Positions 46,490-50,084 of a stretch of DNA of 64,000 nt are shown in pieces (position 1 is the stretch's first letter; each line of letters starts with the position of its first letter). The notes below the pieces were generated by a model. That model was given only the letters and a program-made list of their open reading frames with translations, had not been told where the DNA came from and ran no database searches. The stretch is from Paecilomyces variotii (lineage: Eukaryota). Both the position numbers and the translations under genes were made by a program. The DNA lies in NCBI GenBank assembly GCA_004022145.1, contig RCNU01000016.1. The stretch is one strand, 5' to 3'.

Positions 46490-47261
46490 GCCACATAACT
46501 ACAATAGGCCGTTTCACCAGGTTCGGAAGCCAAGCGTTGCAGTTGGGCGCAGCAGACATACATTGATATCTAGAGCCACGCGATAATGAGATGCAAGTCT
46601 AACCCAACTGAAGTGAGAGAGAGAGAGAGTCTAGGGTCTCCCCTTTTCCCCGCATCTGTAGGCTTCGAGAGTAGCTCCTTAGTCGTGGTAGTAACTAGTT
46701 GTTGCTGTAATAGTTGTAATAGTAATATATAATACTAGTAACAGTGGTAAGACAGGACCCAGAAACCGCTGCATCGCGCCAGTCACCTGAGGCCACCTGG
46801 GATCTTGCGGTCAGCAACGCATGACTCTGTGTCGCTCATGGCAGACGCCCGGTGCAGCTGATTGCTACATTGGTCACTAGGTAATTAATTGATTTTATCT
46901 ATGATATGATATGATATGATATCTATCTCCAGGGTCGAGCTCGATCCACTGATCCAGGGCTGTTGGGGGCTAGACTGCATCGGGCGCTAGCCGTCCAGCG
47001 TTTGGTTTCGCCCGCTCATCCAGTGACCGCCCAAGTCAGAAGAGAGTTGCACGCCGTGCTCTCCTGCTCTCCTGCACTACTGAGCAACGCAACCTTACCG
47101 TTCATATCGCCCCTTCGAATCGATACTCTACTATCCTCCAGCATCGCTCTCCCACCGGTGTTGATATCCAGAGTCTCCGGTCCCGTAGTCCTGCCTCTTG
47201 TTCTGACTCCCTCGACCGTTTCTTCCCCACCCCGTCCAACGCCAACCCGTCTTCGTTCATC

Positions 47262-48291
47262 ATGAATCCCGAGTGGTAAGTGCCTCTGGCGCCGTAAACG
47301 CTGTCGTTACGACATTCAGCCATCTGGTTACCACTTCTTCAAGACCGATCTATCACGCTAACCACGCCTCTGATTGTGTAGAGTACCTTTCTGCCACCTC
47401 ATCCTCTCGACTTGGCGTCGCGTCGTTCTTCGAAATCCCACGTCTCTCGCCCGCATTGGTCGGGGATACTAATCAGTAACTCGTTCCAGATACGATTATC
47501 TCTTTAAGCTCCTCCTCATCGGAGACTCCGGTGTCGGAAAGTCTTGTCTTCTGCTGCGTTTTGCTGACGACACATACACGGAGAGTTACATATCTACCAT
47601 CGGTGTCGACTTCGTATGCATTCCCTCCCTCGAACCTGTGCCTGAGGACTTATGCTATCGGGGGGGCGGTGAGATGGTGCTGACGGGGTGACTTGCTCTA
47701 GAAAATCCGGACCATCGAGCTCGATGGAAAGACAGTGAAGCTGCAGATTGTATGTGCCTCAAAATATCTAGATTCTATGCTTCTGCTTGGGCTAACGGCG
47801 ATACAGTGGGACACCGCCGGTCAGGAGCGTTTCCGAACCATCACTTCCTCTTACTACCGTGGCGCTCACGGTATCTGCGTCGTTTACGATGTGACGGACA
47901 TGGACTCTTTCAACAACGTCAAGCAATGGCTGCAGGAGATTGACCGCTACGCCACCGAGGGCGTCAACAAGCTCCTCGTCGGAAACAAGAGCGATATGGA
48001 GGACAAGAAGGTCGTGGAGTACACTGTCGCCAAGGTTCGTCTCCTCCATACAGAGAACGATCTTTTGCGTGAATGCTCATCCGTTTTGTCTTGCAGGAAT
48101 TCGCCGACAGCCTTGGAATCCCCTTCCTCGAGACCTCCGCCAAGAGCGCTTCCAACGTCGAGCAGGCTTTCTTGACTATGGCCAGACAGATCAAGGAGAG
48201 AATGGGCACTACGACCGTCAACAACAAGCCCACCGTCCAGGTCGGCCAGGGTCAGGGCGTCCAGTCCGGGTCCGCTAGCGGCTGCTGTTAA
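47262..48291 (+). CDS. ypt1: Rab1/Ypt1 small GTPase; complex (nested) first intron
   Basis: [63 protein letters not shown] (C-terminal CC prenylation motif). Confidence 0.97.
47273..47489 (+). other. Nested spliceosomal twin intron (stwintron): internal intron 47276-47381 splits the external donor GTG|AGT
   Basis: Internal intron: GTAAGT..GCTAAC(47357)..TAG(47381). Its removal joins GTG(47273-5) to AGT(47382-4), giving GTGAGT. External branch TACTAAT(47467), acceptor CAG(47489). Confidence 0.82.
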
Positions 48292-49324: not shown

Positions 49325-49456
<132 letters not shown>

Positions 49457-50084
49457 GATTATCCACTGGAAAACCCGAATACACACACTACAACTTGAAG
49501 CCTACCTAGTTATATTCATTATTGGTGTTGTAGGTCAGGGCAGCGTCAGAACGGCGGTAGATGAGACCAATAAGTTCCCGGCCAAAGGTCAATATCAGCA
49601 GAAATAGTGACTATCTAGATAGATAGTTAGACGTGGAATTCAAGCTTCTTGATTTCAACCATCGACTCTTTCTGCCCTCTTTGCGCGCTGATCTCGCAGC
49701 GTTAAGTAACTGTTCCCCGGACGAGCCGAGGCAGAAGCAGGCCAAGAACGTCAGTTATATCGGCCGGTACGAACTGACTCCTCGTGGCCGCCGGAGGATT
49801 CTCGCGCTCCCCCCGGCATTGATTCGTCCCAGCGAGAGATCGCCCGGGCGGTCGGTTGTATGAAGGGGCCTTCTGATACTTTTAACATCTTGCTCGGATC
49901 TCTCCTTTCCCTCGGATCCCTTCCCTGCTGACTTACTTATTTGCCGTTCTGTAACTATTCAGACTGTCGCAGTGCAGTTGACCGTCCGTCCGCTCCTTTC
50001 TCCACGCTTTCCGTCCACGCGAACGCCTCCGCTTCATCCGCCTAGCCATCGATTTGCTTATCCTTGCGAGAAACCATCTTCAAT

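Follow-up and report, generated by a model that had tools for sequence, protein, structure and literature searches.

Donor-disrupted ([D]) stwintrons are nested canonical U2 introns in which the internal intron splits the donor of the outer one. The cases from the Ascomycota compared here are the [D1,2] stwintron of lipS/AN7524, the [D2,3] stwintron of bioDA, the [D4,5] stwintron of a reticulon-like gene in Lipomyces lipofer and the [D5,6] stwintron of rtnA. As far as the portions of the literature at hand describe them, they are removed by two consecutive reactions under intron definition, the intermediate that lacks the internal intron is detectable, and a faulty mRNA results when the distal sites are used in one step. 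According to the accessible text of PMC7138796, the demonstrated types are [D1,2], [D2,3], [D5,6] and [A2,3]; [D4,5] has been described, and [D6,7] and [D7,8] are recognised in a wide sense. Almost all known stwintrons are of the [D1,2] type, as stated in the available part of a 2025 stwintron paper. These introns provide the clearest natural proof of intron definition in fungal splice-site pairing, and they serve as models for how introns originate, move and are lost. Here we describe a ypt1/rab1 gene whose first intron is in all probability a [D3,4] stwintron.

The gene lies at 47262-48291 on the plus strand of the window (the whole 64,000-nt, or 64-kb, stretch of DNA that was analysed). Joining and translating its exons yields a protein of 201 amino acids from five coding exons separated by four introns (Table 1). 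The protein starts with MNPEYDY, carries the P-loop GDSGVGKS in exon 2 and ends in the tail SGCC with its C-terminal CC; from its motifs and the N-terminal MNPEYDYLFK we take it to be Ypt1/Rab1. When metagenomes were scanned with the protein of exon 4, 565 relatives were confirmed, and the best 80 of them, on which the comparisons below are based, are 57-100% identical to it. RNA contigs cover 47100-47272, extending the transcript upstream to at least 47100, and the 3' UTR reaches at least 48500. A long (ATT)n microsatellite (49327-49462; 45.7 copies, 97% matches) follows roughly 1 kb after the stop codon of ypt1.

Table 1. Features of the ypt1/rab1 gene in the window, with the observations that place them.
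Feature	Position	Strand	Evidence
Exon 1, coding part (ATG AAT CCC GA)	47262..47272	+	sequence, translation
Outer-donor bases 1-3 (GTG)	47273..47275	+	kept in intermediate contig, gone at mature joint
Internal intron, 106 nt	47276..47381	+	sequence; joint 47275^47382 in X4 and X5, GT..AG ends
Internal-intron donor GTAAGT	47276-47281	+	sequence
Internal-intron branch element GCTAAC, branch A 20 nt before intron end	47357-47362	+	sequence
Internal-intron acceptor TAG	47379-47381	+	sequence
Outer-intron remainder (111 nt including 47273-47275)	47382..47489	+	sequence; X5 record 13
Outer-donor bases 4-6 AGT (sequence runs AGTACC)	47382-47384	+	sequence
Outer-intron branch element ACTAAT, 17 nt before CAG	47468-47473	+	sequence
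Outer-intron acceptor CAG	47487-47489	+	sequence
Exon 2, opening A TAC GAT TAT	47490..47613	+	translation; joint 47272>47490 in X5
Intron 2, 88 nt, GTATGC..GCTGAC..TAG	47614..47701	+	joint 47613>47702 in X4 and X5
Exon 3	47702..47749	+	translation; RNA joints
Intron 3, 57 nt	47750..47806	+	joint 47749>47807 in X4 and X5
Exon 4	47807..48034	+	translation; RNA contigs
Intron 4, 62 nt	48035..48096	+	joint listed as 48032>48095, cut 2 places further, in X4 and X5
Exon 5, coding part and stop (...SGCC, stop)	48097..48291	+	translation; RNA contigs

The MNPEYDY start requires that 47272 be joined to 47490, and the genomic hexamer at the 5' end of this 217-nt stretch is GTGGTA. Measured against the fungal consensus GURWGY, a yardstick taken from the stwintron literature, GTGGTA agrees at only 3 of 6 places, whereas the internal donor GTAAGT agrees at all six, as does the donor rebuilt from GTG and AGT. 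The other three donors of ypt1 agree at 6, 6 and 4 places and have G at place 5 in every case. The internal unit is a complete canonical U2 intron with donor, branch element and acceptor. It sits between bases 3 and 4 of the outer donor, so that its excision builds GTGAGT, and the outer unit has a branch element and an acceptor of its own; all six splice elements match the fungal consensus. The sequence-only reading had proposed precisely this nested layout, with a poor genomic donor converted into a consensus one, and its coordinates and elements proved correct to the base. Translation also bears out its claim that splicing from GTAAGT to the distal acceptor leads to a stop at codon 5, the product being MNPE followed by the stop; an mRNA that retained the outer part would likewise read MNPE and stop.

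Searched over both strands, the window contains one match to a strict [D3,4] pattern (GTR + GTRWGY ... RYTRAY ... YAG + WGY ... RYTRAY ... YAG), at 47273; in 100 shuffled windows the pattern matched 0.08 times on average and at most once. Overlapping double donors (GTR+GTRWGY heads) occur at three more places, 11835 (+), 57072 (+) and 49491 (-), the last some 30 nt past the ATT repeat; across the window, both strands searched, the rest of the strict pattern is absent from these three. The predicted RNA fold of 47262-47500 is ordinary (-55 kcal/mol, z = 0.40, with 120 of 200 shuffles folding as well), and no argument from structure is therefore possible.

Evidence from RNA came from assembled contigs, not reads, in which rare forms are dropped and depths are crude; the depths cannot rank parts of the gene and are usable as hints only. 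The stretch is contained in 20 runs, 8 of them recorded as RNA, and four of the 21 listed runs were examined (X1, X2, X4 and X5, from three studies). The contigs of X1 and X2 are all unspliced and DNA-like, come from another strain and are uninformative on splicing; their differences from the window amount to 10 letters in 1401, none of which falls in 47262-47500 (expectation there, about 1.7). X4, which is recorded as RNA, and X5, which is RNA by the tool's guess, come from two studies. In both, the splicing of introns 2, 3 and 4 agrees exactly with the gene model, and no contig of either covers introns 3 or 4, which indicates RNA without visible DNA.

Both excisions expected of a [D3,4] stwintron are seen in these contigs, namely removal of 47276-47381 alone and removal of 47273-47489. 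The sequence-only reading had named three diagnostic joints. The intermediate joint 47275^47382 (listed as 47274>47381, cut 1 place further; 106 letters skipped) is present in X4 at depth 27.2 and in X5 at depth 23.6, and record 13 of X5, which consists of 47243-47274 followed by 47381-47519, has lost the internal intron and still joins the outer part to exon 2. The mature joint 47272>47490 (217 letters skipped, GT..AG ends) is carried by one X5 contig at depth 75.7, with a shorter side of 30 letters and the flag 'between: not known'; it is absent from the X4 list, which speaks neither for nor against it, and the X4 contigs run unbroken through 47272 and 47489/47490. The third joint, the dead-end 47275^47490, is in no contig of X1, X2, X4 or X5, and its absence is no proof against it since rare forms are lost from contigs. 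X4 also contains an unspliced contig (47246-47410, depth 15.7), and its cover, in crude depths, is 15.7 over the internal part versus 64.4 and above over the outer part.

The contigs are built from de Bruijn graphs and the DNA examined was that of the 64-kb window, so the intermediate joint might conceivably be a graph chimera or stem from a second genomic copy without the internal intron. Such an origin is scarcely credible, however. An identical joint with exact GT..AG ends was assembled in two studies, the window contains none of the joined 20-mers, and the DNA-like contigs of X1 and X2 show the full genomic form only. The joint also falls exactly where the sequence and six related loci (see below) predict it.

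Several further features of these contigs were observed. One X4 contig carries, just before 47466 and thus inside the outer intron, 25 letters unlike the window, and this loose end has no match in the window at up to 3 mismatches; it possibly derives from another strain or species in that metatranscriptome, or from a chimera. Depth is high (268.5) in the X4 contig 47466-47534. Intron 2 is unspliced in contigs spanning 47584-47731 at depths of 124.1 (X4) and 30.6 (X5), similar to those of the spliced joint (94 and 34.9, respectively), and its retention would end the protein after ...GVDF at a stop inside the intron. Other contigs of X4 and X5 share only 47513-47543, a 31-letter P-loop stretch, with flanks that differ on both sides; judged by eye from the translated letters, our guess is that these flanks belong to a paralogue of the Rab11/Ypt31 type.

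The reading we favour, at a probability of roughly 0.85, is that ypt1 intron 1 is a donor-disrupted [D3,4] stwintron removed in two steps. U1 would pick the GUAAGU at 47276, the only consensus donor near exon 1, and intron definition would pair this donor with the closest branch element and acceptor (GCUAAC, UAG), so that the 106-nt unit leaves. The first ligation would set GUG beside AGU and thereby create a GUGAGU donor at 47273, which could then pair with ACUAAU and CAG. Removal of the 111-nt outer intron would finally join GA to A and restore MNPEYDY. The order of the two steps, with the internal unit leaving first, is presumed from the layout and the intermediate, and a share of the transcripts may be spliced in one step from GUGGUA.

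Related environmental loci carry the same layout. The motif at the start of exon 2 could be located in 48 of the 80 best relatives (a slash marks the splice site in what follows). At this point 27 of the 48 are uninterrupted, and seven (L001-L005, L007 and L033) read ...YAG/ATAC GAY as in the window. L004 ends 88 nt upstream, its exon 2 start being as in the window. The other six, which hold the 5' part, all read GA/GTR, an internal unit, then WGT ... YAG/ATACGAY. With the internal unit bracketed, their arrangements are GTG[GTATGT..ACTGAC..CAG]AGT in L002 (internal unit of 183 nt), GTA[GTATGT..ACTGAC..CAG]AGT in L003 (69 nt), GTA[GTAAGT..ACTGAC..CAG]AGT in L005 (60 nt), GTA[GTAAGT..ACTGAC..TAG]AGT in L007 (81 nt), GTG[GTAAGT..TTTAAC or ACTTAC..CAG]AGT in L033 (63 nt) and GTA[GTACGA..GCTAAC..CAG]TGT in L001 (99 nt). 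The donors rebuilt from them are GTAAGT or GTGAGT, and GTATGT in L001, where the internal donor, GTACGA, departs furthest from the canonical form among the six. For the outer branch site, the strict pattern finds none in L003, L007 and L033, where CTCAC- or CTTAC-type sites are visible by eye. The GTG/GT..AG/AGT arrangement described in the sequence-only reading is present in the slightly wider form GA/GTR..YAG/WGT in 6/6 related metagenome loci that include the 5' part.

These signals stand in sequence that has diverged widely. Among the seven genes (the window and the six relatives) third-codon identity is 0.32-0.64, a strong synonymous divergence, and the intron interiors of 18 of the 21 pairs lie no more than 2 sd from the shuffled mean; L002/L003, L003/L007 and L005/L033 lie 2.4-3.1 sd above it. 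When the first 9 and last 30 nt of the intron were held fixed and the rest was shuffled 5000 times per locus, YAG/WGT with an upstream branch element arose in 38 to 234 of 5000 shuffles (0.8-4.7%) per locus, and it is observed in 7/7 loci; without the requirement for a branch element, YAG/WGT arose in 179 to 701 of 5000. The seven loci are related, and the product of these rates is therefore not a probability. Nevertheless, internal signals kept amid decayed sequence point to selection on the two-step route, and the nested layout is apparently old, being kept in relatives whose intron sequence is otherwise unrelated.

The same comparison bears on whether the 217 nt are removed mainly in a single step from GUGGUA, perhaps helped by U1 sitting on the overlapping GUAAGU, with the RNA joined at 47275^47382 lying off the pathway. 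This route is formally open, since the stretch excised at the mature joint begins with GT and ends with AG in the genomic sequence, and an intermediate abundant enough for assembly in two runs could be an accumulating dead end. We nonetheless regard it as quite improbable. GUGGUA lacks the place-5 G found in all three other ypt1 donors, and one-step removal would place no constraint on the internal branch element, acceptor or WGT, which are nevertheless kept in 7/7 diverged loci. Moreover, the RNA left by the first cut has a perfect GUGAGU and its own branch element and acceptor; there is thus no reason for it to stay unspliced.

For the two-step stwintron, conservation of the layout is most simply explained as a trap: the outer donor would depend on the internal intron, and loss of an internal signal would be lethal. 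The layout would persist because the gene is essential and loss of the internal signals leaves a stop at codon 5. The same trap has been argued by the authors of the stwintron work for the conservation of the bioDA stwintron, as far as the available text goes.

A further possibility, raised in the sequence-only reading, is a regulatory gate, in which the second step or the choice of acceptor is modulated, the MNPE-stop products are degraded and the dose of Rab1 is set in this way. The intermediate and the dead-end product do both stop at codon 5, the product of one-step splicing from the internal donor reads TGA or TAA in 7/7 loci, in X5 and X4 the intermediate reaches, by a crude figure, roughly one quarter of the word depth of exon 1, and intron 2 is also retained in RNA contigs. 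The stop, however, arises automatically from GTR followed by A, so that no selection is needed to account for it, and a layout locked into an essential gene would explain the conservation equally well, as for bioDA. The dead-end joint is in no contig of the four runs, and the predicted fold of the pre-mRNA stretch is unremarkable (z = 0.40). We consider a gate unlikely, and these data lend no support to a regulatory role of the ypt1 stwintron.

The remaining interrupted loci hint at where the layout came from. Fourteen read ...AG/Y GAY at the start of exon 2 (L009, L015, L017, L020, L021, L023, L037, L039, L042, L051, L060, L066, L079 and L080), three of them with AAG acceptors. In seven of the 14 (L009, L015, L017, L020, L021, L023 and L060) exon 1 reads ATG AAY CNN GAR TA and is followed by GTRAGT or GTGCGT; these seven have a plain phase-2 intron of 180 to 611 nt inside the Tyr-5 codon (GAR TA/GT...AG/Y GAY), which appears to be an old and widespread Rab1 intron position. 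In the other seven of the 14 the first exon was indistinct or was not located. The letters GAGTAGTAAGT are common to both layouts. In the distant relatives they are read as coding GAG TA followed by the donor GTAAGT, versus coding GA, the outer-donor start GTR and the internal donor GTAAGT in the window's group. The plain intron of the distant relatives begins 3 nt downstream, which puts the internal donor of the stwintron at the place of the old donor, a coincidence that the sequence-only reading had missed. GTG stands at the outer-donor start in 3 of the 7 stwintron loci, where a Tyr codon would need TA; as GTG cannot supply it, these bases are no longer coding, which fits an intronic status. 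Exon 2 starts with ATAC in the stwintron loci and with Y in the distant relatives.

These correspondences suggest descent of the internal donor from the old one, together with a 3-nt slide of the exon junction; the direction and path of the change are likewise presumed. The stwintron might then be a frozen stage of a 3-nt slide of Rab1 intron 1, a tentative reading to which we give somewhat less than even odds. The old 5' splice site GAR UA/GURAGU would live on as the internal donor, the former Tyr bases would have become bases 2-3 of the new outer donor, so that TG came to be allowed there, and exon 2 would have gained AUA. The filamentous ascomycetes that carry the arrangement would have been locked into it, with every internal signal essential. 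The stwintron layout may, alternatively, have had an independent origin. The frozen-slide reading, if true, would yield not only the first [D3,4] stwintron but also a worked example of intron sliding by a whole codon.

With respect to novelty, neither a [D3,4] type nor a ypt1/rab1 host was found in the accessible portions of the stwintron literature that were searched; the subtype seems to be undescribed so far. The four types that the sequence-only reading had listed as known ([D1,2], [D2,3], [D5,6] and [A2,3]) stand, but the list was incomplete, lacking [D4,5] and the wide-sense [D6,7] and [D7,8] that appear in the accessible text of PMC7138796. Within the literature searched, a [D3,4] case fills the missing place among the donor splits. 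Its host is a small, single-copy, essential and very conserved gene, which makes comparison across fungi easy, and codon-sized intron sliding can be put to a concrete test at this locus. There is also a practical side: a gene finder that accepts GTGGTA arrives at the correct protein on mistaken grounds, and one that requires GTAAGT would cut Ypt1 short at codon 5.

Compared with the known [D] stwintrons of the Ascomycota, as described in the texts available, ypt1 intron 1 shares the nested canonical U2 introns with a split outer donor, the two reactions with their detectable intermediate, and the faulty mRNA that results from one-step use of the distal sites. Like bioDA and lipS, it keeps its layout over wide taxa in a conserved single-copy gene. 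It differs in the split at bases 3/4 and in its ypt1/rab1 host. Mis-splicing inserts 3 nt and runs at once into an in-frame stop, in place of a frameshift, and it is the internal donor, not the outer border, that coincides with an older intron position. The closest parallel for the proposed slide is a stwintron-mediated 1-nt intron shift involving [D1,2] and [A2,3] types in a DHA1 antiporter gene, described in the accessible part of PMC5587772. Common to both cases are a stwintron beside a discordant plain intron position in orthologues and a link between nesting and sliding; at ypt1 the two positions are 3 nt apart and both outer borders have moved. Neither a locus with loss of the internal intron nor an alternative [A]-type route was seen among the ypt1 relatives examined.

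Recursive splicing, nested introns and intrasplicing in animals likewise involve stepwise removal and donors that become usable after an earlier splice. The ypt1 stwintron resembles animal recursive splicing in both respects, its removal probably being stepwise and its outer donor dependent on a previous reaction. Its introns are tiny (106 and 111 nt), and length is therefore no reason for removing them in steps. In the animal recursive and nested cases no splice element is interrupted by another intron, according to the accessible part of PMC5587772, whereas in ypt1 the donor hexamer itself is split.
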